Shown one piece after another: positions 1,733-48,807 of a DNA stretch of 63,022 bases. The position numbers and the translations under genes were made by a program. A model generated the notes under the pieces. The model was not told the DNA's origin, made no database searches, and saw only the letters and a list, made by a program, of their open reading frames with translations. This DNA is from Perkinsus olseni (taxonomy: Eukaryota). The stretch's first letter is position 1. Each line of letters starts with the position of its first letter. The stretch is from contig JABANN010000140.1 in NCBI GenBank assembly GCA_013115125.1, forward strand, positions 1 to 63,022. The letters are read 5' to 3'.

Positions 1733-1792
1733 GTTGTGGTGGGGAAGGGCAAGGACAATGCAATCGAAACTCGACAGAATCAGCTCGGAAAA

Positions 1793-1865
1793 TGGAGAAC
1801 CCGGGCATCGATCCCGGTGCCTCTCGCTTGCTAAGCGAGCGCTCTACCATTTGAGCTAGTCCCCC
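1793..1865 (-). tRNA. tRNA-Ala (anticodon AGC)
   Basis: Minus strand GGGGGACTAGCTCAAATGGTAGAGCGCTCGCTTAGCAAGCGAGAGGCACCGGGATCGATGCCCGGGTTCTCCA: 73-nt cloverleaf, G3:U70 alanine identity pair, anticodon stem CTCGC/GCGAG around TTAGCAA, followed by TTTT. Confidence 0.97.
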
Positions 1866-2149
1866 ACAACCAACCCGAGGTTGTTTGTTTCGTGTATCGC
1901 TACGCGAGCAGACAACACTACTGAGATCACGGTAGGAAATGCACACCCTTGGTATTCCTGAAACATGAGCTCACTCTGACCCATGAAACCAGAGGAGAGT
2001 GTTTTAGATATATCGAATTCAAATGGTGAGTCTCTAAAGCCGCTGACGAACGAAGTGATAGAAGTGAGAAGTGCCCGGCAACTCAGTGCTGCGCTGCGGA
2101 TAGAAACCCAACGTGGTACGAACCAAACCCCCTTTTAAAGAGAGAGCTC

Positions 2150-13479: not shown

Positions 13480-15459
13480 CTGCAGGACACATTCGTGAAT
13501 CTGAGCATATTGTGCGGATTCATATATATGAAAACAGTTGAGGCCGTACGTTTGGTGAAATGGCACACTCGACCCATGAAAGAGTGATCCAGGTGTAGAG
13601 TACATCGCGTAGTGTTAATCCCAGTACCGAATATCCATAGCGTGAACCAACCCGATAGGTGAATCCCGTTCTCAAGAGTACCAGTTGAAAGGGAGTTTCA
13701 GAAAGTGGAAGGACGCACTAATGATAGACTAGTCGAGTTACAAAACCGGACCCTCACGCTTTGTGTAGTTACAGTCCGTAACCTAAATCACGGGCGATGG
13801 AAATTCCAGTACCATTTCTAGTTCTACTTTTCAGTGGAGTCTCGAAATCCCAGCTTAGCATTTCAGGAAAATGAATGAAAATCCATGGATAAACTGTGAG
13901 GAACCCTCCACGATGAGGCTAGGGAAAGGGCAACCCAAAAGGCCCTGAAACGAAGAGGGCGACCAGAAACCCAGTGTGAGTGAGTTGCTGAATGCGTCCT
14001 TGGTAATCCTCCTCAATGATCTAGGAGTCCTGGACCAGGACCCATTGGATGAGGATTGTCCAAGTTGGACAGACCAACGTCGATTGTTGGAGATGTACTC
14101 GTGAAATGAAACCCATCAGTAGCAAAAGCATGTTTTCAGTGAAAACGTTTCACTTCGTCGCAACCCTCTGGAGATAAGTACATGCGCGTTCGCGGTTCAT
14201 ACTCCACCCCTGTTTTTTAGGATGTCGCACCGTGTTATGCGGTATTGTATCATTTTGCCTGTTATGCCCGAAGTTTATGCCCGAAAGTTCTTTCGAGTCG
14301 ATTCTCTGTGAAAACAAACAGTTCCTCATTCCATTCACCACCTGCTTCTCTACGGAATATTTCCAGCTGAAACGAATAAAGTTTATTCAATAAACCATTC
14401 CGCATTTGACAAAAATGTGAAATGTCGCGAAACACCTTGTGTCACAGAACTTGTGTGGTCTTCATGAAAAACGCCGTTCCTGGCGGAGGTTTCTAGCGGT
14501 GTGATCAAGTCATCGTCATGTGATCTTTCTGCGGTTCGCGTGGTCATCATCGTGATAACCTGGATTTCGTGATTCGCAGATGTATCTGAATTTAATGGAC
14601 CTTATTGAACTCAATCCCGGCGAAAAACTTCTCGTTAACAGAAAAGTTTTGGAAGTGTTCCCACGACAAGGGAGGGCAGTTTCCGTCCAAAACTTTTCGG
14701 ACACTATCAGCCGCGGGAATGGCCGGAGGCTCACGTCCTGAGCGGCTCCAAGCGCGAGATAATCTAATTAATCACTGCGATCAAGGCATCTTCGCCGTAG
14801 ATTAATAATCTCAGATTATCCAGGGATTCCCGAAATCCCGGAATCCGATTTCGAGGATCTCGAGAAGGGGACATCATAGCGAAGGGTATGGCAATCGTAC
14901 TAGTTGCGGAGCGAGCGGAGCATATTACGCTCGCTATTCCGAGCGTTATTCGGTAGCATATTTCCTCGGCATGTTTCGAGCTGCCAACCGTTGTCTACTC
15001 TCTTGTACTTTCCGGTGAAATACCGGTTCTTCGGTCAGTGAGTGTTGGACGAATGTATGTTCTCATATGACATATCCTCTGATAATGGCATAAGTAATGC
15101 GTAGTGCCGCATTACGCCGGGTCGTTGCCGTGACCAGCCTCAGTCGGCGTCCACAGTGGGACCAGGAGCCGATGAGCCCATGGTCCAGGCCCTGGACTTC
15201 AGAGACGTTCGGGAGTCGATCCGCATGCACGTGAGGCTGAGATCTATCTGCCTACTCACTATCACCCCATTCAATGACATTGAATCAATGTATCCGTACG
15301 CCTTATGATGGTTTCGCGGTCAACGTTTCGACCATCGCCGATGGTCCATCGGCACTTGCTGCTGTCCGTTGGTTGTGGATCTGTCCGCGGAGTGTGTAAC
15401 TTTGTCGATTACGTTCGATGATTCATCGCGCCGGGCGCGATGACGTGAAGCTAATACTT

Positions 15460-15760
15460 GTGTGGTGTGATATGACTAGTATGCAAGAGGCATGTAGGAA
15501 TGCGCCAGCCATTCACTTCTCTATGGATGGTACATTCAAGCGTTGTCCGGGTGAGTGGCATGAACAATACACCATTTCGTTCCGACATCAGTGCGGGCGG
15601 ATGGTGCCTTGCATCTTCTGCCTGTTGTCCCAACGCGATTGCGAAACGTACTAACGGCTGTTCGAAGCCATTCATCAAATTGTTGGTCCAGATGTCTATT
15701 CCTGTATCTTCGACAAGGAGAGAGCCGCGACCAAAGCGTTCGTTCAGCAGCTGAACGAAG
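15460..15760 (+). mobile_element. Degenerate MULE (Mutator-like) transposase fragment
   Basis: IHFSMDGTFKRCPGEWHEQYTI...MVPCIFCLLSQRDCETY*RLFEAIHQ...SCIFDKERAATKAF: the DGTF and DxE(x)A MULE core motifs with an in-frame stop at ~15652. Confidence 0.85.
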
Positions 15761-17518
15761 CTGAACTTCAGCTGCCGAGCGCCTCGACTGCTAACGAGGA
15801 CTTCATTATTCTTGGAAACCAGTCAGAAGAACTATGAATCGGAAATTCTTAGAAAAAGGAAAAGAAACTTAGTCTCTGCTCGCTCGCGTTGAAGATTTCG
15901 TTGCCCATGACGAGATCAAGTCAGAGGCGAAAGAAGTTCTGCTTTGGTGATGTTGCCTTCAGAAATCAATCGGTTTCGAGCTCTCCGCAAAGGAGCTGGT
16001 AATGCCGTCAGTTCGATCCAGTGGGTGCTAGCCCAGACAGCTCCTAATTCTGTGCATTGATGCCCATAACTTTACATGTGGGTTGCAAAGCACATGGGCC
16101 ATGTCACATGGCAGCCGATGTTTGGAGCACAATATCCCCCACGTTGATTTTTTTGAGTCGAAAGATTTCACTGGGAACCTGGTTCGGACAGTCCGGTTCG
16201 GATTGCTTCATCCATCGAGAAGGAGGATGCCAAGATTAAGGTGGTGATCAACCACCTTCTAACCAGGCGGGTGACAGCATGGTTCGTGCCCAAACAAGGC
16301 AACTCCCGGTGCCTGCACGTCAAGAAGGGCATGATGCCCTGGGCATCAAGCCAGCGCTGTGAGACACACGCACTACCCAAGAAAAGTTCGCGCCGCTGTG
16401 GTGTTGCCTTCGAACGTCTGGCCTCTCCGTCAGCTAAGTTGAATCAGCTAAGCTGAGCCAGCTTCAAGCCCTTCGCAACGAAGCGGGGAATGCCGTCGGT
16501 TCCATCCCAGGGGTGCAGGGAGCACCGTGCTCCCTCAGATAGCCCGCCATATTGGGCATTAACTTCACATGCTGTTCATTGGAAGACATATGCCGATGCT
16601 TGTGATACACTATTCCCCTGCGTTGAGTTCTAGTCAAACGGCGGTCAGATTCTGCAGTAGCGCAGTGTCACGCCTCTCTACTGAGTCAGTAGTCAATAAG
16701 GGGCAGCAATTTCGGTCCGAATTTCCCCGTGAGATCGCGAATGAAACATTCAAAGTGGGTTGATGCTCCACTCAAGTCGAGAAGAGCAAACTATATGGAA
16801 TCCATATTATGGATTATCTCAGGCTGAGAACCTAGAGTAAACTCGCCAATGACGAGTCGTCATGATTTATGTCATCGCGCTGCGTTATCAAGACATGCCG
16901 TGTCTGACACCGTGTCTTAGACACCTCGCCGAAGCTAGTAGCTTTAAGGCTTGAAGTTCAAGCTGCCACCGAGAAGTTTACCTCTGTGTTTTCTGTCGGT
17001 CGTGGGCTTCTGTCATACTTCTGTCGTAGGCCTTAGAGAGTTTGAACTGCACTAACAGCCAGTATGATACTGAGTATGCCGCATGAACCACTGTCTGTAC
17101 TTCTCGCCGCTTAACAGATCACGAGAGGCTCTCCGTTGAACGACGGTGCCAGCAGATGAAGTTCATCATGAAAGAACTTCGTTCATCTGCTGACACTCAA
17201 CGTCAGCCCATAGTCGTTAGTGAGATGGTAAATGAAATTGGCAGTTTCAAATTGCCTTCACTATGCCGCATAGTATGCGCACTGCGAAGAGAAACTTATG
17301 AGTCCCGAAAAAAAATTTCCTGTTGCCTCGGGAAATCGGGAAAAAATTGTGAGAGATTTCGCTCTGGAAAAAGTCGTCAAAAGTAGCTTATTCCTCATAC
17401 CTGCCAAGCAGGTATTTCGAATGACCCGTCCGACTCTCCGACAGAGCACAACATCCTTCATTATGATAAAAATCCCGAAACGAGGCATGGACGTAAGCTT
17501 AAACACCCAGATAGAGAC

Positions 17519-17899
17519 CTAATCATTGAGTGAGTCGAGGTCTCCAAAGCCGGACTCATCCGACTGGGCGTCGAGGAAGGCCTTCATGTTTCCCAAGGCT
17601 TTATCCTTGGCACGGCGCTTGGCACGAAGCACTGGCTGCTCATCAGCAGGAGGTTGTTGGACTGCCTCATCACCCTCAACCTCGTCGTTTCCCTCCACTG
17701 GAGACGGAAGAATCTTTCTCCGTGCAACTCTTCTCGGACAATACTTCTCTTGGTCATAAGCCAGTGAGAGACACGCTTTTAATGATGCATGATGCACGAT
17801 GATCGTGCTTTCTCCAACAGTAGACAGCTCCGGATTAGAGCCTAGAGCGCGGGAGCGTATACAACATAACCGTTCATGTCTCTCGACTGTCCGTTGCAC
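17519..17899 (-). pseudogene. Orphan ORF remnant, possibly the C-terminal tail of a retroelement pol
   Basis: Isolated 126-aa ORF in a repeat-like zone (TIIVHHASLKAC, then an acidic/basic tail); the family is not recognisable with confidence. Confidence 0.25.
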
Positions 17900-18093
17900 T
17901 CTGAACGCGGAACAGAGGTGGATTGAGAAGCACGGGCAATCTTAGTCGAAATTTTTTCGTGCAGATGCAATTAGAACACTTAATCAAAGATTGAGATACA
18001 CAATGCTATTAACAGCGATCAGTCATGGACATTTTACGAATTGCAAACGAACTCACGGGCAGCAACCAACCTCAATGAAGTCACCACGATGGA

Positions 18094-19058
18094 TTAAACA
18101 GAGACCAACGCAGTACGGGGCCTCAGTAGCAGCAGCTCATCCAGTCGGTGCCCGCGCTTGTTCAGACCCCTTGGCCAGATAGTATGCAGCTCCTGCATCC
18201 ACCAACGCTCACGAGCCCGCCGAATGCGAGCTTCCTCTAGGGGGCTCGTATATTGTTCTCCGTCGAAAAATAGACTTTCCAGAATAACCACGTCGAAGTT
18301 GTCTAAGCTCATATGCTTCTGCTTATCATCAGAGTCGAAGTTATCTGCAGTTCCACCGGTAGAAACTCTGGAGCACACTAGCCAGTGCTCACCTGTGCAA
18401 AGTGGGCAAACCTCAGCATCATTACGGTAGTGGATGCTCATCGGCCCGTTGCCCTTGATTTGAAGATGGGAACTCAGACGTTGCCGCAGCTCTCGGCCAG
18501 TCTCCCCAACGTACCTACAAGGCAGAGGCTTAGTGCTTGATATTGCCGTGAAGGGACCTCACAAGATGCCACAGCCTCGACATTGAAGTGCATATACGAG
18601 ATTCTTCGACCTGCAGCTGAGCTCGCCTTCCTCCATCCATCCGTGATTCAGCGTTCTCACAGCCGGACGAGTTTCTCGCAAGACCGCGCAAGTCCGACAG
18701 TGCGGGTTGTCACAGTGAGAGATCCGCACTGGCGGCGGCAACTGAGCGGAGAAGCCCCAAGTGAATCAAGGGCCGATACAACTCAGATGCCGAAGAGAGA
18801 CCAGCTTACCCATTTCTCGGTGAAGTCTTTATCCAGGATCAGGTGCCATGTAGCGGGATTCTCTCTCTGTACTAGACGTATGGTGTTATAGTTTACTTTG
18901 GTACAGCTGTGACATCGGTGCCGTAGGGGTATCAACGGCAGCCTTCGAACCACTACGGGAGCTGCCCGGCCGAGGTGCCACGATAAGGATGCCAACATGA
19001 AGGCACAAAACAGGACAAGGACAACACAACCTGCAATTCTCAATAACTTAGCTCCCAT
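18094..19058 (-). CDS. GIY-YIG endonuclease of Penelope-like type with N-terminal hydrophobic signal; two introns (18742-18809, 18515-18562); no RT
   Basis: Spliced product MGAKLLRIAGCVVLVLFCAFMLASL...WHLILDKDFTEKW|LPPPVRISHCDNPHCRTC...LSCRSKNLVYALQCRGCGIL|YVGETGRELRQRLSSH...RRARERWWMQELHTIWPRGLN; open after removing two GT-AG introns. Confidence 0.85.
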
Positions 19059-19336
19059 CGCCCGAACGGCGGCCACTGACCAGTTCAACCCAAGGCATGC
19101 TGCCAACGAGCATCACGGTTTTGGCATACAGTCAAAGAACAAAACGTCTAAGTGTATCAACATGTTATAGTGATCGAGGATTCGCTATTCTCTGGGCCCC
19201 CCACTCCTTAACAACGAGTTAAAGCGCAGCCACATTGTGGCTGCCACAAAGAGTAGTGCAAGATGAGAGCCCACCCGCGGTTCTCTGGGAAGGCTCAGCC
19301 TTAGCTAGCTACGGTCTGTTCATGGCGAGTTCGTCG

Positions 19337-22300
19337 TCAAAGCTCATCCCAATCGGAGTCGTCCGAGTCGTCGACTATACTGAATGACTCCTCGGTCAGC
19401 AGTGTGTCCGGGTCGATGCTGCTGCTGTCTACAACAACCGCATCGTCATCGGGGAGGTAGCGGGAGTGCAGTGAGGCCGTGTGAGCGAGATATTCAACAG
19501 GCATGAGCACTTGATGGAAGAGAGGATAGTAGATCTTGGCCAATATCCACTGGGAAGGGTTCGCCGTATTCATGCCGAGACCAGGCGCCCAGCGGGTAGG
19601 AGTCGGGAACGGCTGAGACGTCACTTCCTCGGCCTGTGCGGGGATCTGAGGCACATGCCTTTCTCGCAATTCGGCCACTATGACGGAGGACGCCACGCGA
19701 GCTCACCCAGGATGGATTCTGGAAGGACTCCCTGCAAGGAGGGGTCGGCTGCTGTCGCCGATCTCCCGTGTACTGAATCTCAATCCATGATGATAGGGGG
19801 CCCGACAAACGCCTCCGACGGGTTTTGGGCGGCTCAGGAACGTCCATGGTATCTGCTGCTGGAGGGTCTAGGGCTCGAAAGCCGAGGACTGATGCCAGCC
19901 TTAAGGGGAGCTGTGGCATGTACAGAGGAGGCAGCGCTAACAACAACAAATTAAGTTTCCTATAGGCCGAAGCAAGCTGGCCACCACCGCCGAACTCAAG
20001 TCGGAGGCCATTCAAGGACCAACATCATTATCACCATCACTGCTGTTGCTGCATGTATGAGACTTCGAAGCAATACTACCCATGGAGAGGCCCGACTGGT
20101 GACTGCCGAGGAGAGCTGGCCTAGAGGCAAGTGAAAGCGATGAGCCCTACCTGGAGTCGTCCTCATCTTCCTCGGACCGCTTAAGGAGGCCCATCAAATC
20201 CTCCCTTCCGATGTCCTCGTCACCCTTGGTCAAATGGCGGGCAGCGAAGTTTCCCATCCTCATGGCGCAGTCACGGTAGCGCTGCAGCGCCTATTGCAAG
20301 AGAGGGCGGTTCATCCCAGAGTACGGCGACGGGCGAGAGATTTCGAGGGCTCACCCGGGGCATTGGGGCGAGGTCCTCCTTGGGCCACAGCTTGGATATC
20401 CCCGTCACCTGCGTTGTTATGCTTTGTCGCTTCGTCAACCATTCTGAGGATTGCGGTCGCCTGGGGACTTGTAGTTTTGCACGCATGCACATCACTCGCA
20501 CAACCCACTCGGTGACATTCTCTTCGGCTGAGAGTTTCTTCAGCAGCTGCTCTTCCCTCCGATCTCGCTCTTCTTGAACCTGAAAGGAGGAGTGCCCTCG
20601 TTCAATGCCGGCCAGAGAATGCCTGGAGTCATTCGGCGGCCGAGAGTGCGCGACGATGACGACCTGATAGTTCCATCGCGCCGCCACGGAACCAAGCTCA
20701 GTCTCTCTGGACTGTAGCCATTTATCGACCTCCTCGGGGCTCCCAATGACGTCCCAGTCATTCTCTGCCTTGGCCGCTGACCGAGACGTACGCTAGCGAT
20801 GAGAATGCCGGCTCGGTCCCACCTCGGTCCTCAGACTCCATTGGATCCGTTGGCCCGTTGCACACAGGAGGAGGTAGCTGACTCGGATCATTATTAATGG
20901 CGAGAGGTGAAGGAACTCACCTCCTCATCGTCAGAGGGGGAGAGCATGAGGCCCTCCACCTGCAGCTGAGATGCACCGACCAGCCACAGCCTATCAGTGA
21001 GGGCGTCAAATTCAAAGTCAAAGATACCAGCTAGAATGGTCCAGCGAGTGCTGAGCAGTCCCGCGATCCTTCCGACGGCATCCCGCACCAGAACTGAGCA
21101 GAGGGAGTGGATGGTGTGGTACTCGCCGCGAGGGAATGGGGTAGTATGCTGTCACTTTCGAGTGCCTGCGACTGCTGCTCGCCCATCGCCATAACAGCCT
21201 CGGCTCCTGGCTTGAAATAGCGATACGAGATGGGAGTAGTCCGCTGAACTCCGGGTATCTGTGAGGGCAATTGCGGTTTCATACGGCGTCGTAGTGAACA
21301 GGGGTCAGGCGCCACGCTCGACACACCCACCGAGAGATTCTCATCGCGGAAGGGCCTTGTGGATAGGTAGGCTACATTGAGCCACGCACTTCGGCTCGTC
21401 TGCCGCAGTAGTATCATCGACCGGAGCTGCAGCCACAGGCAATCAGACAATCTCCATACCCTACAGTGTACTCGCCTCGGCGGCAGAGACAGAACGCACA
21501 GCGCCATCGACGTAGCGGATGATGAACACAGCATCGCAGTCCTTGAACAGCAGCTCATGTCGCCTCTCCTGGCCGAGGCCTATGTACAGAGAATGCAGCA
21601 CACGTACAATGCCCTCTCTACTGGAGTACATGCCACATAGCATCGTATGGTCGCCGCCGCTGTTTCCCCCATCTCACCTTCCTCCTCCGGTGTTGCAGAC
21701 TTCATGTAGGGCTGTGAAGACTTCGCCAAGTGAGACTCCCTATGAGCATACCGTTTGCGCTCCAAGTTGTACAGTTTCTTCAGGAGCACCCCTGAAAGGA
21801 GGCAACCAATTGCAGATGGTGAAAAAATACGTGAAATTTGGTACGGGAACTGCCCTAGCCTTACCAGTGCGCATGTCGGATCCGCCGTCCGGCCTCTTGG
21901 CCGTCATCGTGAGGATCGACGCTGACTCTCCTCCCATGGCGAACATCCGGAAGGCGACCCCTTTCTGGAAGAAGATGACCTCTGGGACGCTGACTGGGCA
22001 TCTTCGAGAACCAACAGCAGCATGAAGAGTGCGGGAGGTAAGGCAGCTCACTTCTGTCCTGGTCGGGCTGCTAGTTGTGCAAGCAGCCACAGGTACCCAC
22101 GACGACCGGGTTCTCCAGGCGGCGAGGGCTCCCGGCTCTCAGTGGTGAAGCCACTGGATATCGGGTCCTCGAGACCGAATTCGAGAGAGAGCCTCAGAAC
22201 GGGGCAGGCGCCAGCGACATTAGAGTGTCGACTAGCGCTAGACTGATGACAAGAAGGACAACCACAAGGACCACCTGAGAGAGACTTCTCCCGAGACAAC

Positions 22301-22654
22301 CAGCCCTCGCAGGAACCAAAGGACGAGTCAATCGGGGCCTCATGTTGTTGTCGCCGGTGGTATCAGCTCAGTGCTACCTTGGACGAGGGTGGCACTGGTA
22401 TTAGGGTCCCCCAACTGAGCCGGACGATATCTTCTTGCAAGCGAACGAGGCGTGTCTGATATTGTGAGATACTCCCCGCCCCTCAGGGACCCAACCTGGA
22501 GGGAGTCCAATCATTAGCGGATCACCTTGCCGTAGGGTACCTCGTGGTCCGCAGAAGATACTGAGGGTCGCGCCGATGCCCGGGCACCTTGGGGCTGTGG
22601 CTGGCCCGTCATATAGCGGGTCAACTGAGAACTCATCTTCAAGTGGAGGGCCAT
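19337..22654 (-). CDS. Hypothetical multi-exon protein (possibly more than one gene)
   Basis: Chain of exon-like segments linked by GT-AG introns, from MALHLKMSSQ to ...DDSDDSDWDEL*; no family motif recognised. Confidence 0.5.
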
Positions 22655-22750
22655 GAACTCAACGCCCGGTAGCTCTCGAGTAGAACTATCCCACCATCAA
22701 CATGCCGTGAGAGAACAGGAACGATAAAGTTGAAAAACTAAAATTTGAAA

Positions 22751-25700
22751 TCAGCAGGCGACGACACAATCTGAGCTCGCTCCTTCACGAAGGGCCATAC
22801 GCGAGTCGAACTGCGATGGAAGGCCGTCTCGTGACCGACGACCACGATGTGATCTCTGGCGCGAGAGATGGCTACATTGGCTCGCTGAGGGTCCGAGATG
22901 AAGGTGCCTGCTCAAACTTCAGATGCAGAGGGGATGCTAGAGGAACTAATACCAAAGCAACCGCTGGAGGACCTCTGGTAGGTCAGCACCACAATAACAA
23001 TGCTCGCCTCGGAGCCTTGGAAGCTGTCCACGGTGGCCACGGTGACGGGCTCCGTGATCTGCAGTACAGAGGTCCCGTCCTAGCATCCCAGCAGACAATT
23101 TACAGACGATGCGAGCGACGAAGAGATGACCAGCCTCGGTCGCAGAGCGGTCAGAGCTGAGAGACCCCACCCTATCCTTGACCTCCTGCACCATTGCCTT
23201 ATACATGCAGATGACACTGATGTCCTGAGTGCGACGATAAAGGCGTTGAACCAGGCTAGCTACGAGGTCCGCCTCTCCAGGATGGTAAAGCGAGTCACCT
23301 ACGGCCACCCCAGCCTCTGCATCGCCCGTCCACAGCAGCCCACCTCTGCGCTGAGGAGGTGAGCTGCTGTTGTACTGTAGAGCTATCACGGCTGGCATGC
23401 CAGGGAGGGGAGCCCCCGCCGCTGGAGGGGTGTATTGTGTGGTCACCTGACGATAACGGTCTAGGCGTGGGTGCCTCTAAGTACGGTAGCAGCAGCACCT
23501 GTCCATCATAGAATAGGGTTGAGCAGATCGCAGAGATATCAGGGTGGCAGCGATACTGCGTCCTGAGCTGAAGGCTGTGCATGAGTTTGCCTCCAGGATG
23601 GGCTGCATGCCTAGGGTGCAGCAAGGGGCTACTCGAGGTCATCTAGCCTGGTGACACGCTACCTCTCCGCTATCAGCTTCATCACAGAGGTCGACCCAGT
23701 AGGGGCCTTGATCGGGCAGTCATCCGGTGGAGGCGGCAACTGCCTCGGATCGCCAAACATGAGCATACGGACCGGGCGTACGCTCCTCATCAACGGCAGC
23801 ATCAGAGTGGGCTCCGTCACTTGGCTGCACTCGTCAATCACAACGAATGGGCACGGTATCTGAACAGGCCACACCATACGACCAAGCCTCTTTCCTCCAT
23901 GCACCTACAGTCGAGGCCAGGTCGGCTGCTGACGCCAGTGTCGCGGCCACGATCGCTCTCGCCTTCCACTCTAGCACTGAAAGGCCAGGGGGGCCCTCCT
24001 TCTGAACCCGGCTCTGCGTCCTGGCGAAGTACTCATCCCGAATGCCAACAGCAATCCGATCATGGACACCCAAGCGGACGAAATCTTGGAGGCCTTTGGA
24101 CTTGAGCTTGAGAAGGACGTTGTCGACAGCGACGTTCGTTAGGGACAAGAGGCCGACCCTACGGTGGGCCACCGGCACGACGGGGCCGCAGGAAGCCACG
24201 AGTATCTCATAGAGTAGTGCCATCACTGCCGCCAACACTGTGGTCTTGCCGGAGCCGTAGACGCCTTGAACCATGATGAGGGGCTCAGCAGAGCTGTCCG
24301 AGAACCACGCCCTCACCTGCTCAAGTACCGCTACTTGCTCGGAGTTGAGGCCCGGGAACAACGTCATTGTGGCTGCCATACAGTCATCGAGATCGACAGC
24401 GGCAGGCAGGCTGAGAGCACGGCCTAACAGTCGGTGGCTACTGCTGCTACCTTGGCCGCGGAAGAGGCACAGACTAGTGCAGCAGATAGCCCAGGGGTCG
24501 AGAGACGCTCGAGATCCCGAGCCAGCATTGAACAGGTCTCCCTCACTATCATCGCTGCTGCCATCGTCGCCTTTGGTGGAGAGAACCTCCCGTATAGTTT
24601 GTAAGTACTGTAGCCTGTGTCCGACCCCCTCGAGGCAGTGCAGTTTGCTACAGGCCAGAGTCGACCCTACCACCAGACCTTCCTGGAACATCCTGGTCGT
24701 TTCAGTGAGCGGTCTAACTTGCAGCAGCCCCTGTGGGTTGAGGCCTCGCCATGTACTAGCATAGACCACCCACTTGCCCTTCACTAGGAACAGGAATACG
24801 TCCGGTGTCTCAATACGAGTCTCCTTATCGCGTACAGTAGACGACTTAAAGAAGAGCTTCGACCCACCGCGCCCCTTCTTGGTCGCCCCCTTGGAGTACC
24901 CGGGAAAGTACAGCCTCGCCTCCCCTTTGTCGGTCATCTTCAGCTTACACGTCGAGCCCAAAGGACATGCCTTGAACCGAGGAGCAGCTGATCTCGTCGG
25001 GCGCAACCCCGTGGCCAGGTCCCGCACGCCTTGGTGAAGCGCTCTGTAGATGGTGTCCAGCCACAAGAGGGCGTAGCTGCGCATCGATACGGCGACTGGA
25101 GAGGCGTCAACTGCGCTTGCAGCATCGCCAGACTTGCATGGGATTACAAAGTCCATGTCGAGGAGGTCGAAGGGCGTGGTCGGAGAGCGGTAGGGAGGAA
25201 AGGTCGACGCAACGGTAACGTCTTCCCTGACTTCCCTGATAGGGCTCGACCTGCTAGGGGCCTGGGGTGGAGCCCTGCTGGGCTTCAGTAGCAACGGAGC
25301 GTCTCCATCGTCGCTGTGCTTCGTTCGGGTCTGAGCTTTTCTCAGTATAGCCTCGAACTCGCCGTCCTCAGCATCAGGGGTGCCGGTGGGAGGCCGGCAG
25401 AGGCCACCAAAGGCACGGCTTTCGATGGCCGCAGCGGAGCGGAACATATCAGCACTCACCACCCCCACATTCACACTACCCCTAGACAGCCCCTGCGGCC
25501 CGCCCTGGCAACCTGCCGCCACGCAGCCAGTACCCTGGATGAGGCCGCCTTCACCCGACCCGAACTGCACCCGAGCAATGTGGCGTTGCAGTAGCATCTC
25601 CAGCGTAGCTGACTGGGCCTGGGCCTTGTTCCAATCTCGCCTCAGTGTGTAGCTCCAGATGGCGCTGTCGACCACCTCATCGTCCTCAAGGGTACACAGG

Positions 25701-26014
25701 CTAACGCCGGCTCCGCAAAGTACTAAGACGCCCTCTTGATACCGCTTCCTCTTCTGCGTCACTTGCGCTGTATACTGGCAGTCGAAGCGTCCCGTTAAGA
25801 CAGGAGCTTCTGCTCGGTTGCTGCCCCAACCTCCGAAAGACTGCTTGTTGTAGTCGTCTAGCTCCCTAGTAGTTTCTAGCGTTGATGGCTTCAGTTCCCG
25901 ACGTGGCCGTTTCCTCCTACCAACAGCCTTCAGGTCCATCAAATCCGCCGCCGCACCACTCGAGGCGCCACCGAGGAGGTCAACCTCGGCCAGACAGGAA
26001 TCAAAGTCGCACAT
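22751..26014 (-). CDS. ZGRF1: ZGRF1-like SF1 (UPF1/DNA2-type) helicase with N-terminal DUF2439
   Basis: FDCQYTAQVTQKRKRYQEGVL (DUF2439-like), LNSEQ, QGVYGSGKTT, LTNVAVDN, VVIDECSQVTEP, GDPRQLPP, QYRCHPDI, TVDSFQG, RANVAISRAR. Confidence 0.85.
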
Positions 26015-26190
26015 AGGACGCGAAAGTCGAGCTGAAAAGGCCCCACAGTAACTGTCGGGCCCGTTGCTCCCAGTCTTACTACGACAGCGCACCTACTAAT
26101 ACGGGACTTCGGATGCTGAGGGACAACAGCTGCCATGCCTCCGGCCACTGACTCACTAAACAACACACTAGAGGCGTAGGGGAGAGGTCA

Positions 26191-27117
26191 TTAAAGTTTA
26201 CTACGAATTGCCAAGTATCCTATACCAGCAGCACCGGCTGCTGCTGCTGCACAGAGGCAATGTAAAAATGGCGGGTACCATAGAACGACGCCCGAGGCGT
26301 GCCGAGTAAGGGCCTTACGCCATGCCGCTACATACAGAGTGTAGACCATATCATGGAGGGCCGAGTTGAACATGTGGGGTATCTTACACCCTATGATCGG
26401 GAGGGACCGGTAGGGAGTGAGGCCAGTTGAGGGGTCCATCGTAAGCATCTCAGAAAAACACAGAGTCATTCCCCACAGGCTCAAGGCGTCCACGGCGACC
26501 TCGGGCCGGATTTTGGTGGCATCTCTCAAGCAAACTACAAGCGATGGCAGTGTGAGCTCCGTCAAACCGAGGAGATGCAGATACCAATACATGCTCGTGT
26601 CCCTTGGGATACTCCACTTAACTTCCTTCACGTCCTCTTCCCTAGCGCAGGCGATTGCTGTGAGAGGGACCCACCCACAGGCAGCAACTTCCTCGACTGC
26701 CAACGTGAAGGCCTGAGGGGCCAGTTGCTCGTAGACGAAGCAGCCAATGACCATATTAACCCTGCGGGATTCGAAGGTCTCCATGTCGCTAACTCGGCCA
26801 AGGTATCTGTAGTGCTTCCTGTTCGTGAGGTCGACTCCCAGCTCCTCCCGAACCTCTCGACAGGCAGTGGTAAAGTCACAGGCAGCGTCTTCCACGTCAC
26901 AGCGACCACCGGGGAAGGCCGTCTGTCCCGACCAGGGGTCGCCTTCACGAGCAGCCCGGCGTATGAGGAGCATCTCAGCAGGATCCTGCGGTTGAGGGCC
27001 CGGGCGTACAATACAGGCCACCATTGCCCGGGACTTCACCGCTACCTTAGCCGCGCTGAGGACGGGCGATTGGCGAGCTAGCCTGGCAGTAATCTGGGGT
27101 ATGGTGAGGGCAGGCAT
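26191..27117 (-). CDS. Nudix hydrolase, CoA-diphosphatase-like (NUDT7/PCD1 type), ends in SKL; intronless
   Basis: LLIRRAAREGDPWSGQTAFPGG and Nudix box TACREVREELG, LWGMT; C-terminal hydrophobic stretch then SKL*. Confidence 0.9.
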   Translation of the reverse strand: MPALTIPQITARLARQSPVLSAAKVAVKSRAMVACIVRPGPQPQDPAEMLLIRRAAREGDPWSGQTAFPGGRCDVEDAACDFTTACREVREELGVDLTNRKHYRYLGRVSDMETFESRRVNMVIGCFVYEQLAPQAFTLAVEEVAACGWVPLTAIACAREEDVKEVKWSIPRDTSMYWYLHLLGLTELTLPSLVVCLRDATKIRPEVAVDALSLWGMTLCFSEMLTMDPSTGLTPYRSLPIIGCKIPHMFNSALHDMVYTLYVAAWRKALTRHASGVVLWYPPFLHCLCAAAAAGAAGIGYLAIRSKL

Positions 27118-27358
27118 TCGAGGGCGTGAGATGAACAGCGGTTAATAAACTATGAAGACACAAAACGTGACGCCGCTCTCTGCTTGCGAACAGCCACTTC
27201 ATAGATTCTTGATGACATCCCGGAGACCACAGTCGATGGACCATCACTTGGAGGCCAGCAGAGGCCGAGAGTATGACTGTTGCTGCTGTTCGAGCGCAGG
27301 AGAACTCAGCTAAGTGTAGCGTCCAGAAACAATAGTACAAAGGATGTGCATGGAGCGG

Positions 27359-28297
27359 TCAGAGGCGACTGCGCAGGCCTACGTAGACGGCACCAGCGGC
27401 AGCGACGATAAGGCAGGCAAGGACGCCGTGGAAAAAGCACAAATAAGACAGATGCATCGCCGAGCCATCACGCAGCCCTCGCCGATTATTATACGTCGAA
27501 TGGTACAGCGCCACGAGGAGGTCATGCACTGCTGAGTTGAACTTGCGAGGGATTCTGATGCCGAGGACGGGCAGCTTGCGGTATAGCCTTAGAGGGTTGC
27601 CATCGCGGGCTATCATATTCGAAAACTGTAGCGTTATACCCCATAGACTGAGATCATCCACAGAAACATCAGGTCTAGCCTGGACCGGGTCCCTCATGAC
27701 GATAGGGAGGGTCGCCAGGGCCACACGATTCAGACCGATGAGATCAAGATAGCCATGAAGATAGGACGGCAGCCCCCAACCCCTGGGGACGGTCCAGTAG
27801 GTATTGTGGAGGTCATCATTAGTAGCATAGCCGATCAAGGAAAGCGGCACCCAACCGCTGGCTGAGACCTCACGAGGGTCCAGTGTGAGGGAGTCGGGTG
27901 CTAGCTGTTCGAAGACCAGGCAACCGATGACCATGTGGATCCTCCCCCGGCGATAGATCTCAATATCGCTGACCCGCCCTAGCAACCTGTAGTGCGCCTC
28001 ATCGGCCAAGTTGATCCCTACTTCTTCCCTCACTTCCCGTATTACCGTTGCCAGATCATCACCGTCGTCCTCGACCTCACAGCGGCCACCAGGGAAGGCA
28101 GTCTGACCCGACCAGGGGTCCCCTTCACGAATGGCCCGGAGTATGGTCAGCATCTCGGCCGACTGTCCAGGCTCCGACCCTGGTCTAACGATACACCCTA
28201 TCATCGCTCTTGACTTCACAGGCGTTACAGCGCCACTCAGGACGGGTTCCTCCTGCGACAGTCGAGCTGCAAGCTGGGATACGGTGATGGTAGGCAT
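27359..28297 (-). CDS. Second tandem Nudix hydrolase paralog, ends in SRL; intronless
   Basis: MPTITVSQLAARL..., RAIREGDPWSGQTAFPGG, TVIREVREEVG, LWGIT; colinear with the neighbouring Nudix; SRL*. Confidence 0.9.
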   Translation of the reverse strand: MPTITVSQLAARLSQEEPVLSGAVTPVKSRAMIGCIVRPGSEPGQSAEMLTILRAIREGDPWSGQTAFPGGRCEVEDDGDDLATVIREVREEVGINLADEAHYRLLGRVSDIEIYRRGRIHMVIGCLVFEQLAPDSLTLDPREVSASGWVPLSLIGYATNDDLHNTYWTVPRGWGLPSYLHGYLDLIGLNRVALATLPIVMRDPVQARPDVSVDDLSLWGITLQFSNMIARDGNPLRLYRKLPVLGIRIPRKFNSAVHDLLVALYHSTYNNRRGLRDGSAMHLSYLCFFHGVLACLIVAAAGAVYVGLRSRL

Positions 28298-28664
28298 ACA
28301 AGACGCTGACAGGCCTGAACAGCACGCTCTTGCGCTAGTACTGGGCTTTTGGTGCACAGCCCCCCTAGCTACTCCCCGTCGGATGGTCATCCCTATCCGT
28401 TATTCGAGACGTTGGAACACAACAGATGGAGTTGCATAGAGCTTCATTATTGTTATTGTTATTAAGTGATATGGCCAAAGGAGTGCTATGCAGGTCCTGC
28501 TAGAGCCAACAGCTGAGGGGTGGTGATACTTATACCAATACAGTGTACAGCTCACGACGACGAGGAGGAGGAGGACCAGAGAATATCAAGCCGAGCAGCA
28601 TGCACTACGCAACAAAGACAATCATTAATATTCTAGTTCACACGAGAACACTACTGCCGCTACT

Positions 28665-43987: not shown

Positions 43988-44183
43988 GATAGTGAGTCAC
44001 GATGGGACGATTCACCCCGAGGCGACTCTGATCGATTAGAATGGCGAGCGCGAAAAACGTGCTTAGTTTACTTCGGGGTACCTCTGTGATCATCAGGAAT
44101 CTGAGTTTAAACAGCGCAATGGCGTCGATGAAAAGTGGTTGTGTATGTACTACTGGCAGGGCTCGTTGTTGTTATCAAATTAT

Positions 44184-47100
44184 ATGGGTAAAACAGCAGG
44201 CAAGAACAGCCCTAAGAAGCCGCGTCGAGAGGAAGCAACAGCTGATACGGAGAGCAACACTGCCACTAAGGCGGAGCCGGCAACACTAGATGAAAGCATG
44301 AGTCAGACTGCAGCGACAGGGGGCAGCACAGAGACACCCGCTGTACACGAGGAGGCCTCGAAGGAGGCTGTTGGTGGTGGCGACGACGAGCCAGATGTTG
44401 GGGTATCTCCCGACGGGCAGCCCGCTGAGAATACGGTAGTATGCTAGGGATCTGCGGGTCTCGTTGTTCAGGCTTTGTTTAGGGTCCCGAGGATGGTAGT
44501 CAAGCGGCTCAGTCCCAACCGAAGGTGGATTCTATGGTGGAGGCCCTAGGGGCTAATGAGGACGAAATGAAGGGTGAGAAGAGACCGCGTGATGAGCTCG
44601 TGGAGCAGGACGGGAGTAGTAGCTGTTGGTCGACTAGCGGGTAGCGATGGCCCTTCTCTGCAGGTGAGGCTGGGGACCATCCCGAGCCTAGCGCCCAGGC
44701 TGTTCTTGATGGACCATTTCCCGAGGTCGAGGGTTTACTATCAGTTGGTGATGGGCCCAGTGCTTTACTGGACAAAGGAGAGAAGGCTGGAGAGACGACC
44801 CAGTGTGCTGATCCTCGTCGGCTCAAGACAGCGGAGCGGTTGGTGGTATCCTGGGAGCATCCGCCTCCAAATGAAGGTAGTACGTCGAGTTTTCTGGATA
44901 GCAGTAAGTCTTTGGTAGGTGAAGCCTTCGTCGTGGAGACTGGTGATATGGGCGAGACAGTCGTCCCTATCCCTGCCAAGGACGTGCCATGCTTTGTGGG
45001 GAAGGGTGGGACCACTCAGAGCAAGATAATAAGGGCTAGTGGAGTGCAAGAAGCCGCCATAAAAGAAGAATATGATGATGGAAATGTGAGTGTATTGTTT
45101 TTGTATCAGTGGGTGTATCGTTTGTTGGTAGGGTGATGAAGCCAAGGAGCAAATGGCTGCTGTTGTATTGAGCGGCACGGAAGCTGCGCGGAAGCACGCA
45201 GAGAAGTACATAAGGCTGGTACTCTCTCGGCACGGAGCGGAGGTTAAGGTTGACTTGGACAAGGATGACGATGGTGATTTGACGGTTATGAGGGATGTCC
45301 CTCGTAGTGCTGTGGCCCTGATATTGGGCACGAAAGGGGCCAAGCTGAGAGGGATGGAGGAGAGATGTGGTACTATGGCCTTCCTACTGGGCAATACGGA
45401 ACCATTGGCCGGCGAAGATGAGGTGAGAACGCTTACCGGGGAGTCTTTGATGAGGAGTGGACTGTACGGTGAATGCCTTGCGATTAGGGCGATGGTATCA
45501 GTACTTAGGTCTCACCCGATAAGGTGGTCTTGGCCATCTTCGGAGCACCTCACCACCGAAAGCGCTGTGAGATGGAGGTTAGGGATTTGGTAGAGGCCAA
45601 GGTCCACGGCTACTATACTAAACACATGAAGGAGTCGTTGAGCACAGAGGAAGGAGAGGCGTCTGATATAATCAAGATGGATGTAGCCAGCTGGGATTGG
45701 GTGGGGTCCATCGGTCAGAGTCGTGGTGTTCAGAAGTCGGATGCCATACTACTTTTCGAGGATCATGTAGCGGTGAAGAAGCAGCTGGAGCTCCTGAGTG
45801 GCGCTACTATCAGCAGGCTGAGCGATTTCGTGAGTCGTTACCGTCCTGCATTGGAGAGGCCAGGGTGTGTGGTGGTGGTACGCAGGTTGATGTTTTTGGT
45901 ACGAAGAAGCAGCGCGTGAGGGCTAGGGAGTACATGAAGTGGACTGTGGCAGCTCTTCTTGGCGAAGCAATCGACATCAAAGACGCCGCCGAGAGGGATG
46001 ATTGTAAGAGGGGAGTTGGGGCGGGCTCGTTACGTGGTGCACACCACTCGAGGAGGTCTTTGCTCTCAAGCCCACAACAAGGAGGCCACTGCTGCTGCTG
46101 TTGTCGTTTCGGCACCACCCTCGGTGATGATGATGATGATGTACGGTAGGCACTGAGGTTGAGGTCCCGACTGAACTGATTGATGTGCTATTTGGCAAAG
46201 GTCGACGGCACCAGCTCCGTCAACTACAGGACAAGTTCACGTGCCTGTTGTTCCTTGGCAAGGAGCCATCAGACGATAAAACTGCGAAGAAGAAAGCCGG
46301 TAAAACAACTGAGCTTGCATGTGCTGTGTAAGAGTATTCCCGTCATCCCCGCAGAGAATGGTGACGATTCTGGAACGAGCGCTGAGCCAACCTCCGCCGC
46401 CGCCACCACCACCACGACTCCGTCTACTACGACAACTACCCCGCTTGTTATTGTCGGTCCCTGGTCGAGCCGCCGGAGGTGCATGTACGAGATACTGGCC
46501 GAGATTGAAGCCAAGATACCCGGCTGGATAACTTCATCGATTGAACCAAGCCTGGCTGATGAGGTCGAGGTAGCGAGGGTATCATCCTCCTCCCCACGCT
46601 AACTCAGTGCCTTACCCGATGGTGGCTGTAGCGAGTTGGGCCCTCGGGTGCCCTTCTAGTCGCCCTCTCGCCTCTCCAGGGCGCTATGGTATTGCATTCG
46701 CGATCTTCCACGGTTTTGTGCTAGTCGTTGTATGAGTTTGGCCCGTAGTTGTCGTTGCACCGTCTGCATCTCTCAGGGCTATGCATGCGACCGACTATGG
46801 CTACCACAGTGGAGGGACGGGGATGATGGCAAGAGCCCCTTGAGAGACTACCCTCTCTCTGCCGCCTCGGGCGCTATTGTCACCGTCATCGGCCCGATGG
46901 TTTTCGTGGAGGGCGATCGTGACCAGCGCCAGCGATGCGAGCAGTACATTAAATGGCTATTGGTAGCAAGCCGGAGGCTATCGGAGTATCAGTCGAGGCA
47001 GCAAAGAGAGGAAGAGGAGAAGGAGAGACAGGAACGTCACAAAGCTAGGCGAGTGACGAAGTCGCTGGAGCCCTGGCAAGAGGCGGATCTCCGAGCTGAG

Positions 47101-48807
47101 CATGTGAAGGGGGGCCTTAGTGCTTGCCTAGTCTTATCGCGCTCCACTTTGGAAGGGAGGGACGATTGTACCGAAGTTAACGTCCTCGGAGATGCTACGG
47201 TGGAGCAGAAGGAACAGTAAGTCAGTGAAATTTGTGAATCGTGTGTTGAGGACTACGGTGATCAGGCTCCTTGAAATGACTGTATCTAACCGCGGCACGG
47301 GGAAGGGTCGGCAGGAGTTGGAGACGATAAGTAGCCGAACTGGAACGCTGTGCTTGTTGGCAGCGGACCGCCCATTGGATGAGCAGATAGAGCAGCTGCC
47401 TGGAGTGAGAGTGGTGGTGCTTGGTAGGGATGACAGTAGTAGAGAAGCGTCTGCGAGCGCACTTAGAAGCTCATTTAGAGATTTACTGTGGGAAAAGGGA
47501 GCGGATTGGCATCGGTCTGGAAGGACAGAGTCTGCTGAGTGGAATGGTAGCAGCCCTAAGGGACGGAAGTGGGACAGTGGTGATTGGTGGAGGGACAGCG
47601 GCAGAGGAGGGAAATGGACGAGGACTGATAGCAAGTGGGAACAAAGCGCGTCCAAGTCGTGGAGCAAAGGTGACCCGAAGTGGACATCGGGTAGTGGCTG
47701 GAGAGATTGGAAGCAGCGAGAGGATTATGGTTGGGAGCAGAAACAAAGTTGGGGTGGTAAGGAAGATGATAGGAGTTGGCGGGAGAGCGGTAGGAATAGC
47801 TGGAGTAAGGGCGATAAGAGCAACAGCTGGGAGGGCTGGGAGAAGGATCGATGGGGCAACTGGCAGAAGAAGGATGAGAGTTTTAAAGGAAGGAGGGAGG
47901 AGCCGACGACGACGAGGACGTAGGTCAATCAGCTGCATCGCCTTCCCATCTTCTCTGTTTAGCGCCTGGGCTTGGAGTCCGCCGATGAGGCCCGAGCCGT
48001 CCCGAGATACTTGGTTCAAGAGAGAGATGCCCCGTTTAGAACGGCCGCCAAGCTCGGGGGCTCCGTCTATTTTCCCTCGCGTTGATGATTATCGCTACAG
48101 TACATACCGAGATGTAGCACCGCCGCCTGTGAGGCAGGCAGCCCTGAGCAGTACCCCGCGGTACTCCTATCGTACAGAAAGGCCCGATGAGGGGATCTCT
48201 GGGGGGCGAGGGAGGTCGACGTGGCAGCGGGAGGGCAGGAGAGATCAATCACCCCAACGCATGGCCGCAAGTCGGTATCGTGAGTCGCCTCCAAAGCGAG
48301 GCGTGCCCACTGAGAGGTTCTATCAAGTGGAGGACTCCTACTATTACCGACCATCGGCTGCCAACCCTCCAAGTCAGTCTTCTATGCCGACACGAGAGGG
48401 GTATTTCCAACGACCTGAGTCGCCTAAGAGAAGGCGAGTGGAAGCACCGATGCGGCCTGCTTGGGAGGGGCGGAGGGACAGTGGTCCAGCGCCACGACAA
48501 CAAAGATACGATGGCTACTACCAAGAAGCAGCACCTACCAGGGGCCTTGGTGCGGCTCCCGGACAATTGAACGAACCAAGGTAACGAGGAGCTGGCCTGT
48601 GTGAACGTCGTTTTTATGGTCGTACGATGGTTATCACCTGGCGATGGTTGCATACTAGCTCTTCTTTCCTTCAGGCGTCCAGGGCCTTCACGAGGCTCGT
48701 TTTCAACTGCACCGCCGCCCTCTAGTGGTGGAGGACGGTATACTATGAAGGAGGAGAGAGGGCCGCCTCGGCCAAGGGGTTATCCCGAATTTGGCCGTGG
48801 CCGATAA
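44184..48807 (+). CDS. Multi-KH-domain RNA-binding protein with Trp-rich and Arg/Pro-rich low-complexity C-terminus, multi-exon
   Basis: KH motifs VPIPAKDVPCFVGKGGTTQSKIIRASG, DVPRSAVALILGTKGAKLRGMEERCG, GTGKGRQELETISSRTG; W-rich block at 47490-47875; ends EFGRGR*. Confidence 0.8.

Follow-up and report, generated by a model that had tools for sequence, protein, structure and literature searches.

The question raised by this locus is whether a lone nuclease of the kind carried by Penelope-like elements (PLEs), found on the minus strand of a contig of the alveolate Perkinsus olseni (JABANN010000140.1, positions 1 to 63,022, the whole stretch analyzed and hereafter the window), is a working gene of its host or the leftover of a retrotransposon. 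A first-pass annotation, made from the letters alone, had described positions 18094-19058 as an intron-containing PLE-type GIY-YIG endonuclease (EN) that lacks a reverse transcriptase (RT) and carries a signal peptide, and had proposed a host-captured nuclease. The explanation that we prefer, with a probability of about 0.6, is that the locus is a single-locus nuclear gene of P. olseni, derived from a PLE endonuclease module and now an ordinary host gene, which codes for a predicted RT-less DNA nickase. The gene runs on the minus strand from about 19030 to 17473, and GenBank already lists its product as hypothetical protein FOL46_001441 (P0050, 314 amino acids), which UniRef calls "GIY-YIG domain-containing protein".

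The motifs quoted in the first-pass annotation lie in three stop-free minus-strand pieces (18783-19112, 18559-18765, and 18094-18558), and a frame from ATG 19058-19056 to TAA 18096-18094 is opened by two GT-AG introns. The splicing of this region was examined in public sequencing runs, 20 of the 24 listed, from 11 studies, holding part of 17400-19400. Four runs were aligned, and the locus was covered by two of them, X1 and X12; the raw-read runs X21 and X23 yielded 0 reads and hence have no bearing. Contigs of both covering runs contained the joints of three GT-AG introns of 68, 48, and 48 nucleotides (nt), at 18741/18810, 18512/18561 (cut 2 places on), and 18344/18393, respectively, with CT..AC on the plus strand equaling GT..AG on the minus strand and with a depth of 623-765 at the joints in X1. 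Removal of intron 1 joins ...DKDFTEKW to LPPPVRISHCDNPHCRTC, and removal of intron 2 joins ...LQCRGCGIL to YVGETGRELRQR. Both of the introns that had been called as restoring an intact frame (18809-18742 and 18562-18515) were thereby confirmed in RNA, as was the spliced transcript that the annotation had named as a check, but a third intron (18392-18345) had been missed. This intron is invisible from the reading frame because it is in frame and without a stop codon; it was predicted from the sequence and then seen in the RNA contigs. The RNA-supported product is 246 amino acids long and ends at TAA 18096-18094, like the products of the alleles P0051 and P0052 (247 amino acids). The exons and introns of the coding part are as follows.

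18810 to 19030, minus strand: exon 1, with a 32-nt 5' untranslated region (UTR), the start codon at 18998-18996, and the basic, acid-free N-terminal part (63 residues).
18742 to 18809, minus strand: intron 1, 68 nt, GT..AG, phase 0; joint depth 623.5 in X1 and 6.9 in X12.
18563 to 18741, minus strand: exon 2, with LPPPV, the Cys knuckle H71-C72-x4-C77-x2-C80 (18720-18691), and the N-terminal half of the GIY-YIG core (Y113, C117, and C120).
18515 to 18562, minus strand: intron 2, 48 nt, GT..AG, containing the in-frame TGA 18561-18559; joint seen in X1 and X12.
18393 to 18514, minus strand: exon 3, with YVGET, R135, H139, and H151.
18345 to 18392, minus strand: intron 3, 48 nt, GT..AG, in frame and stop-free; joint seen in X1 (depth 765) and X12.
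18094 to 18344, minus strand: coding part of exon 4, with the acidic insert, E209 (18210-18208), N225 (18162-18160), and TAA 18096-18094; contiguous in RNA (X1 record 2, X12 record 7).

Intron 3 was retained in a minority of the RNA, as seen in a 104-nt X1 contig (record 3) with a depth of 45 versus 765, and RNA of this kind would code for a nuclease domain with 16 additional residues, in frame, in one of its loops. Read-through or selenocysteine insertion at TGA 18561-18559 was rejected, because the RNA joint excises the TGA and because the spliced C-x2-C-GIL-YVGET spacing equals that of the relatives. An introner-type origin of the two 48-nt introns was likewise discarded, their pairwise scores falling within about 1-2 standard deviations of shuffled sequences.

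All of the quoted motifs (HCDNPHCRTC, NLVYALQCRGC-GIL/YVGET, R..LRQR..H, RE.WW...L.T.WP.GLN, WHLILDKD, and LPPPV) were present, and the Cys knuckle and the GIY-YIG motifs, which had been called typical of PLE endonucleases, were all located in frame and aligned with the columns of the family. In a 47-row alignment, the invariant or nearly invariant columns besides the start Met were C106, Y113, C117, C120, Y124, G126, T128, R135, H139, H151, E209, P221, G223, and N225, and the Perkinsus protein keeps 14 of these 14. They include the GIY-YIG core residues Y113, Y124, R135, H139, E209, and N225 and the CCHH set, whose two Cys (C117 and C120) sit between GIY and YIG and whose two His (H139 and H151) come after them (C120 invariant; C117, H139, and H151 nearly invariant). 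The segment C72-DNPH-C77-RT-C80 lines up with the consensus CxxxxCxTC, and an acidic insertion of about 20 residues lies between H151 and E209. The product encoded in the window differs from the allele P0051 at 10 residues, none of them at hallmark positions, and P0051 scored 22.9 bits against the Pfam GIY-YIG cut-off of 22.6. The AlphaFold (AF2) model had a mean predicted local distance difference test (pLDDT) score of 66, with 80-93 in the core and 93 at residues 71-80. As shown by alignment and model, the product is a PLE-type GIY-YIG endonuclease with all catalytic residues, and nuclease activity is predicted.

WHLILDKD and LPPPV had been taken together as reminiscent of the RT-EN linker. 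Both segments are present, but a likeness of WHLILDKD to the PLE linker went undetected: tblastn of three PLE proteins aligned only from exon 2 onward, and the family alignment had no consensus upstream of the Cys knuckle.

The fold of the model was closest to the catalytic domain of I-TevI, the intron homing endonuclease of phage T4 (PDB 1LN0), with a VIA-align Z score of 9.7, a root-mean-square deviation of 1.9, and 23% identity over 86 of 92 residues; the next row had a Z score of 6.1. A profile search of PDB sequences also found I-TevI, at E=0.0035, and Foldseek gave no match in the PDB at E<=0.001, its top rows being I-TevI at E values of 0.19-0.29. The aligned Y, Y, R, H, E, and N positions are those that we take to be the catalytic residues of I-TevI. 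In I-TevI, the catalytic domain is tethered to a separate C-terminal DNA-binding domain. I-TevI differs in having no Cys pair within its core and in being the product of a gene carried by a mobile intron. UvrC (N-terminal domain) and Slx1 are host-encoded GIY-YIG nucleases that act in repair and might serve as a working model for a domesticated copy, but they were distant structural matches (Z 5.9 for UvrC and 2.5-2.6 for Slx1), gave no sequence match, and lack the PLE Cys motifs.

At the 5' end of the gene, our results departed from the first-pass annotation, which had placed the start codon at ATG 19058 and read the following hydrophobic leader as a signal peptide. Three features of this region, the last of them belonging to an upstream gene, are given here.

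19031 to 19032, minus strand: AG acceptor for spliced-leader trans-splicing; the body of the messenger RNA (mRNA) begins at 19030, and X1 record 5 (depth 623) and X12 record 7 stop at 19032.
19033 to 19058, minus strand: ATG 19058-19056 and the first leader codons, upstream of the trans-splice site; RNA crosses them only as run-on from the upstream gene.
19337 to 19646, minus strand: last exon of the upstream gene, with its stop codon at 19339-19337; X1 record 6 spans 19003-19646 and then carries letters at about 19709 across an intron.

Beyond 19032, the X1 contig continued with 9 non-genomic letters, followed by letters of the Illumina adapter. The reverse complement of these 9 letters, together with the genomic AG, equals the last 11 nt of PmaSL1 (ACCGTAGCCATCTTGGCTCAAG), the Perkinsus spliced-leader sequence as printed in PMC3101222. 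In the same run, record 6 (depth 105) was unbroken over 19003-19646 and went on across an intron into the upstream minus-strand gene; the depth of the nuclease exon contig (623) was six-fold that of the upstream gene. On our reading of these contigs, the upstream gene and the nuclease gene are co-transcribed, and the 5' end of the nuclease mRNA is made by trans-splicing at AG 19032-19031. The pair has the look of polycistronic transcription resolved by spliced-leader trans-splicing; the upstream gene has an intron at about 19705-19647 and is linked with the nuclease gene in one RNA contig (19003-19709 of the window).

Because the acceptor lies downstream of ATG 19058, by 26 nt, the trans-spliced mRNA lacks this ATG and the leader's first 9 codons. 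The first ATG past the acceptor, at 18998, is in frame, is preceded by 32 nt of exon sequence, lies 60 nt beyond the earlier start codon, and corresponds to M21 of the earlier frame. All five annotated allelic models (P0050, P0053, P0003, P0051, and P0052) start with MLASLSWHLGR at AUG 18998, not with MGAKLL. The hydrophobic segment IAGCVVLVLFCAFMLASL and the acid-free, Arg-rich stretch that follows it are present in frame from ATG 19058, and the best 15-residue Kyte-Doolittle window scored 2.95 from there versus 1.0 from AUG 18998. The strong hydrophobicity of the segment and the existence of RNA that contains ATG 19058 (the X1 record 6 contig) speak for a start at this codon, with the leader either routing an effector into the secretory pathway or serving as a bipartite signal that sends the protein to the relic plastid. 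Yet that RNA is continuous with upstream coding exons and places ATG 19058 about 280 nt behind the stop codon of another open reading frame (ORF), and the six-fold commoner form has been processed at AG 19032-19031, with leader-like letters attached there; since the X1 contig is unbroken over 19033-19646, there is no other abundant acceptor upstream. With the uniform start of the annotated models added, we regard translation from ATG 19058 as very improbable. On this evidence the hydrophobic leader is real DNA but not protein, and therefore the signal-peptide and plastid reading is unsupported. The leader exon had been expected to be joined to the nuclease; the abundant mRNA begins at 19030, with the leader start cut off. 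What stands of the earlier description is that both the leader and the Arg-rich stretch are in the DNA, the hydrophobic part being outside the trans-spliced coding frame.

From AUG 18998, the first 45 residues hold 7 R, 1 K, and 3 H, and no D or E occurs before residue 46; pLDDT was below 50 over residues 1-59. Going by composition, this basic N-terminus might weakly hint at a mitochondrial or nuclear address.

We then turn to the relatives of the protein. A HMMER scan of 1.84 billion representatives returned 47 proteins at E<=1e-3, one of which was the gene itself (P0003, 2.7e-78); the next best match had E=2.3e-8 and 45% identity, and none of the relatives was more than 45% identical. Among four long relatives scanned for domains, P0037 (774 amino acids) scored RVT_1 and then a C-terminal GIY-YIG; P0004 (707 amino acids) scored GIY-YIG only, but has a YLDD box ahead of the nuclease at its C-terminus; P0042 (1111 amino acids) had the nuclease near the N-terminus and a sub-threshold RVT_1 match downstream; and P0017 had no RT match. 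A profile search yielded 139 matches at E<=1e-5 among 8000 candidates scored, and the 120 matches listed included several multi-copy RVT_1 plus GIY-YIG clusters. Two of the matches, P0063 and P0080, again had RVT_1 followed by a C-terminal GIY-YIG (RVT_1 of P0080 being below the Pfam cut-off), and most others were short fragments. A search by word for longer relatives with a fused nuclease found none among 3216 candidates, which is weak evidence, and 45 pattern matches to metagenome loci included none that was confirmed.

The most direct alternative is that the locus is a stranded PLE fragment, that is, a functionless solo EN left after loss of the RT in a stretch that happens to be transcribed and trans-spliced. 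PLE ORFs are indeed among the closest relatives, and several belong to multi-copy clusters with 97-255 members; the gene was found in P. olseni only; and, according to PMC3846280 and section 6 of PMC8557442, PLEs can keep introns and are subject to 5' truncation. The structure of the locus tells another story. When P0004, P0037, and P0042, which extend well beyond the nuclease domain, were compared with the 63-kb window by tblastn, they matched at the EN only, and no RT was found, in agreement with the first-pass claim that an RT is lacking. A Naiad-like layout, with an N-terminal EN and the RT downstream, was ruled out because the window has no RT downstream. No hammerhead ribozyme was detected at E<=1 in 14000-24000, and an Rfam scan gave one chance row (IRES_HIF1, E 0.1). 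Flanking direct or inverted repeats, as in a pseudo-long terminal repeat (pLTR), were limited in 14000-24000 to two chance pairs of 20-26 nt, and the window contained no tandem repeats and a single copy of the nuclease gene. Neither a pLTR nor a tail, an inverted copy, or a hammerhead, then, marks the locus as an insertion. Against a functionless fragment stand also the 246-codon frame and its hallmarks, which are intact despite a very long branch to the sampled PLEs; the hallmark residues, which are kept in both allele groups; and the efficient splicing of three introns, the gene's own leader acceptor, and its six-fold depth over the upstream gene. We consider the fragment unlikely. A gene under selection fits better than a decaying insert, because frame and motifs are intact at that distance and because introns, a leader acceptor, and strong expression go with them. 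The earlier proposal of a host-captured nuclease survives in this form, as an RT-less, spliced, trans-spliced, and expressed gene free of element structure, but not in its secretory or plastid routing.

The locus was further compared with known PLE endonucleases, whose canonical marks, as described in sections 6 and 12 of PMC8557442, are a CX2-5CxxC linker, CCHH, and R/H/E/N. The Perkinsus protein shares with the EN-bearing PLEs Neptune, Nematis, and Naiad the linker (C72-x4-C77-x2-C80), CCHH (C117, C120, H139, and H151), and R/H/E/N, and its best sequence matches include such ORFs. It differs from them in having no RT on either side, a single known locus, and no pLTR or hammerhead found, and in having three spliceosomal introns, a spliced leader, an acidic insert of about 20 residues, and at most 45% identity. 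The host differs too: Perkinsus is an alveolate protist, whereas PMC8557442 reports CCHH ENs from animals, with one transfer to conifers, and states in its abstract the same range for canonical EN-bearing PLEs as known before. The Chlamys elements of green algae, spike mosses, and slime moulds are alike in carrying a PLE-related GIY-YIG nuclease outside animals, but section 9 of the same paper describes their ENs as lacking both the CX2-5CxxC linker and CCHH and as fused to RT, unlike the Perkinsus protein, which has both Cys motifs and no RT.

A second kind of mobile origin would make the gene a module of an unrecognized mobile or selfish Perkinsus element, with the EN set apart from the polymerase in a Terminon-like manner or as a free-standing homing-type nuclease. 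The ENs associated with rotifer Terminons, as described in section 12 of PMC8557442, have both Cys motifs and large unique insertions and stand outside the usual RT-EN fusion, and the acidic insertion and the closeness of the fold to I-TevI would suit such an origin. Those ENs, however, lie inside giant telomeric retroelements, and the Perkinsus gene lies among ordinary genes with no element structure: the remaining large ORFs here are genes of ordinary cell function (FAST kinase-like, AlgH-like, ZGRF1/AAA_11 helicase, two NUDIX, and a TPT transporter), no RT is present and no repeats bound a unit, and the known copies are allelic only. We judge such an element to be improbable.

The origin of the gene was approached through an EN tree, built by a quick search with the Shimodaira-Hasegawa-like approximate likelihood-ratio test (SH-aLRT) as the only support measure, from 81 near-full domains among the 172 EN matches. 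The branch of the Perkinsus pair was long (0.92), and 2.2 or more substitutions per site separated the pair from every other row; the branch attaches to another long row, and joins of this long-branch kind were flagged. The pair lay within a 40-row set (SH-aLRT 96) that excludes the main 41-row clade of C-terminal ENs; the tree does not place it more closely within this set and so names no donor. The length of the branch speaks against recent acquisition from a sampled family. Two word-indexed protein searches, one of a 90%-clustered collection and one with a profile, gave named matches to P. olseni alleles only (2 clusters, 5 sequences). Only one of the ten matches looked up carried an organism name, Elysia marginata, and a few members of ESM Atlas clusters are labeled Cnidaria or Chordata, along with HTH_animal, which is a lead only; all relatives with such a name or label are animal. 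An animal donor, perhaps the mollusc host, is possible. GC at the three codon positions and a codon adaptation index-like index were within the range of eight neighboring ORFs, but the index does not separate frames and so is uninformative.

Several points weigh against a domesticated host gene as we have drawn it. The spliced-leader evidence consists of 9 letters in one contig of one run, and at the same 19032 end the X12 contig carries 5 letters that do not align and whose identity was not reported. X12 is recorded as RNA, and X1 was guessed to be RNA, though its spliced joints show complementary DNA; the RNA evidence in both is made of assembled contigs, which cannot show where RNAs start and drop rare variants. 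The helical hydrophobic moment of the N-terminus was not above that of shuffled sequences, 574 of 2000 of which reached it, in a test for an amphipathic presequence. The copy number was based on annotated proteomes and one 63-kb window, and the protein searches run found no orthologue in any other named organism, other Perkinsus species included; a species-restricted gene may be dispensable, or it may be a young insertion from an unsampled element. Moreover, three of the five allelic models (P0050, P0053, and P0003) excise RERWW...GLN, including E209 and N225, via a donor at 18212, and a rare isoform using this donor may exist, given that contigs lose such variants. Two features of the 3' part of the gene bear on this last point.

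17473 to 18093, minus strand: apparent 3' UTR of about 620 nt; X1 record 2 forms one contig over 17473-18347, with a depth of 260 versus 6 for the next contig downstream.
17842 to 18212, minus strand: intron of the GenBank model for the window (P0050), which would delete E209 and N225; no such joint was present in the RNA contigs.

After the excision, the three models read on into a 140-codon frame at 17941-17519. If this longer isoform were the main product, the protein would consist of the knuckle, half of the GIY-YIG domain, and an acidic tail, and would presumably be a catalytically dead DNA-binding protein. The consensus is good at its donor (GTGAGC) and at either acceptor, 17842 or 17698, the 140-codon frame is open in all three alleles whose models read it, and the RNA ends about 46 nt past its stop. 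Set against this, the X1 contig over 17473-18347 (record 2) and the X12 contig over 18096-18344 (record 7) are unbroken through the donor and hold no such joint, and the intron would measure 371-515 nt versus 48-68 nt for the three proven introns. The longer isoform as the main product is thus hard to credit, and the 371- or 515-nt intron that removes E209 and N225 is probably a mis-annotation. The 140-codon frame (17519-17941, minus strand) lies inside the apparent 3' UTR, codes for an acidic tail at its end, and has no Met until its last 22 codons.

For the ordinary host gene that we prefer, the contigs show transcription together with the upstream gene, a 5' end made by spliced-leader trans-splicing at AG 19032-19031, and the removal of three short GT-AG introns, which leaves a 246-codon frame opened by AUG 18998 and closed by TAA 18094. 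By sequence and model, the product comprises a basic, acid-free N-terminus of about 60 residues, which is modeled with low confidence, a zinc-knuckle-like CX4CxxC linker, and a GIY-YIG domain with CCHH. It might bind DNA through the knuckle and CCHH and nick or cleave it by the one-metal GIY-YIG mechanism. Because the nuclease would act without any RT, its putative role would be in service of the cell, in repair, recombination, or defence, rather than in transposition, and the basic N-terminus could conceivably direct it to the nucleus or the mitochondrion.

Other features of the window were noted in passing. The ORFs flanking the nuclease gene had no Pfam match. Tandem NUDIX ORFs (26191-28399 and 23834-26092, both minus strand) adjoin the ZGRF1-like/AAA_11 helicase ORF, and a transfer RNA gene for Ala (AGC; 1792-1866, minus strand) lies between the FAST kinase-like ORF and its neighbor. 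An ORF of low complexity, rich in W, G, K, S, and R (47132-47923, plus strand), had no Pfam match; it lies in a zone (44000-48000) of strong positive GC skew (0.21-0.27), and long ORFs overlap it on both strands.

Literature searches returned no paper mentioning both Perkinsus and GIY-YIG, and papers on Perkinsus and Penelope-like elements were unrelated by title; these searches also turned up no published account of the PLE type, the corrected gene model, or the domestication reading. The gene model is corrected, since the GenBank version for the window lacks the catalytic E and N and the first-pass choice of start codon is 60 nt too far upstream, and the gene would offer a compact 246-residue PLE EN for study. 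In its boldest form, which we put forward only tentatively, the gene would be the first domesticated PLE endonuclease: an animal-type EN, with CCHH plus the Cys knuckle, a combination that the 2021 survey met in animals only, taken up by a mollusc parasite, plausibly from its host or another animal. It would have lost its RT, gained three introns and a spliced-leader acceptor, and stayed under selection in the role of a DNA nickase of the cell, its basic N-terminus possibly directing it to an organelle. PLE endonucleases are familiar as retrotransposon modules, and one of this type standing alone in an alveolate, expressed and with introns, would provide a natural example of domestication. It would also, if true, be a taxonomic outlier that bears on horizontal transfer between animals and their parasites.

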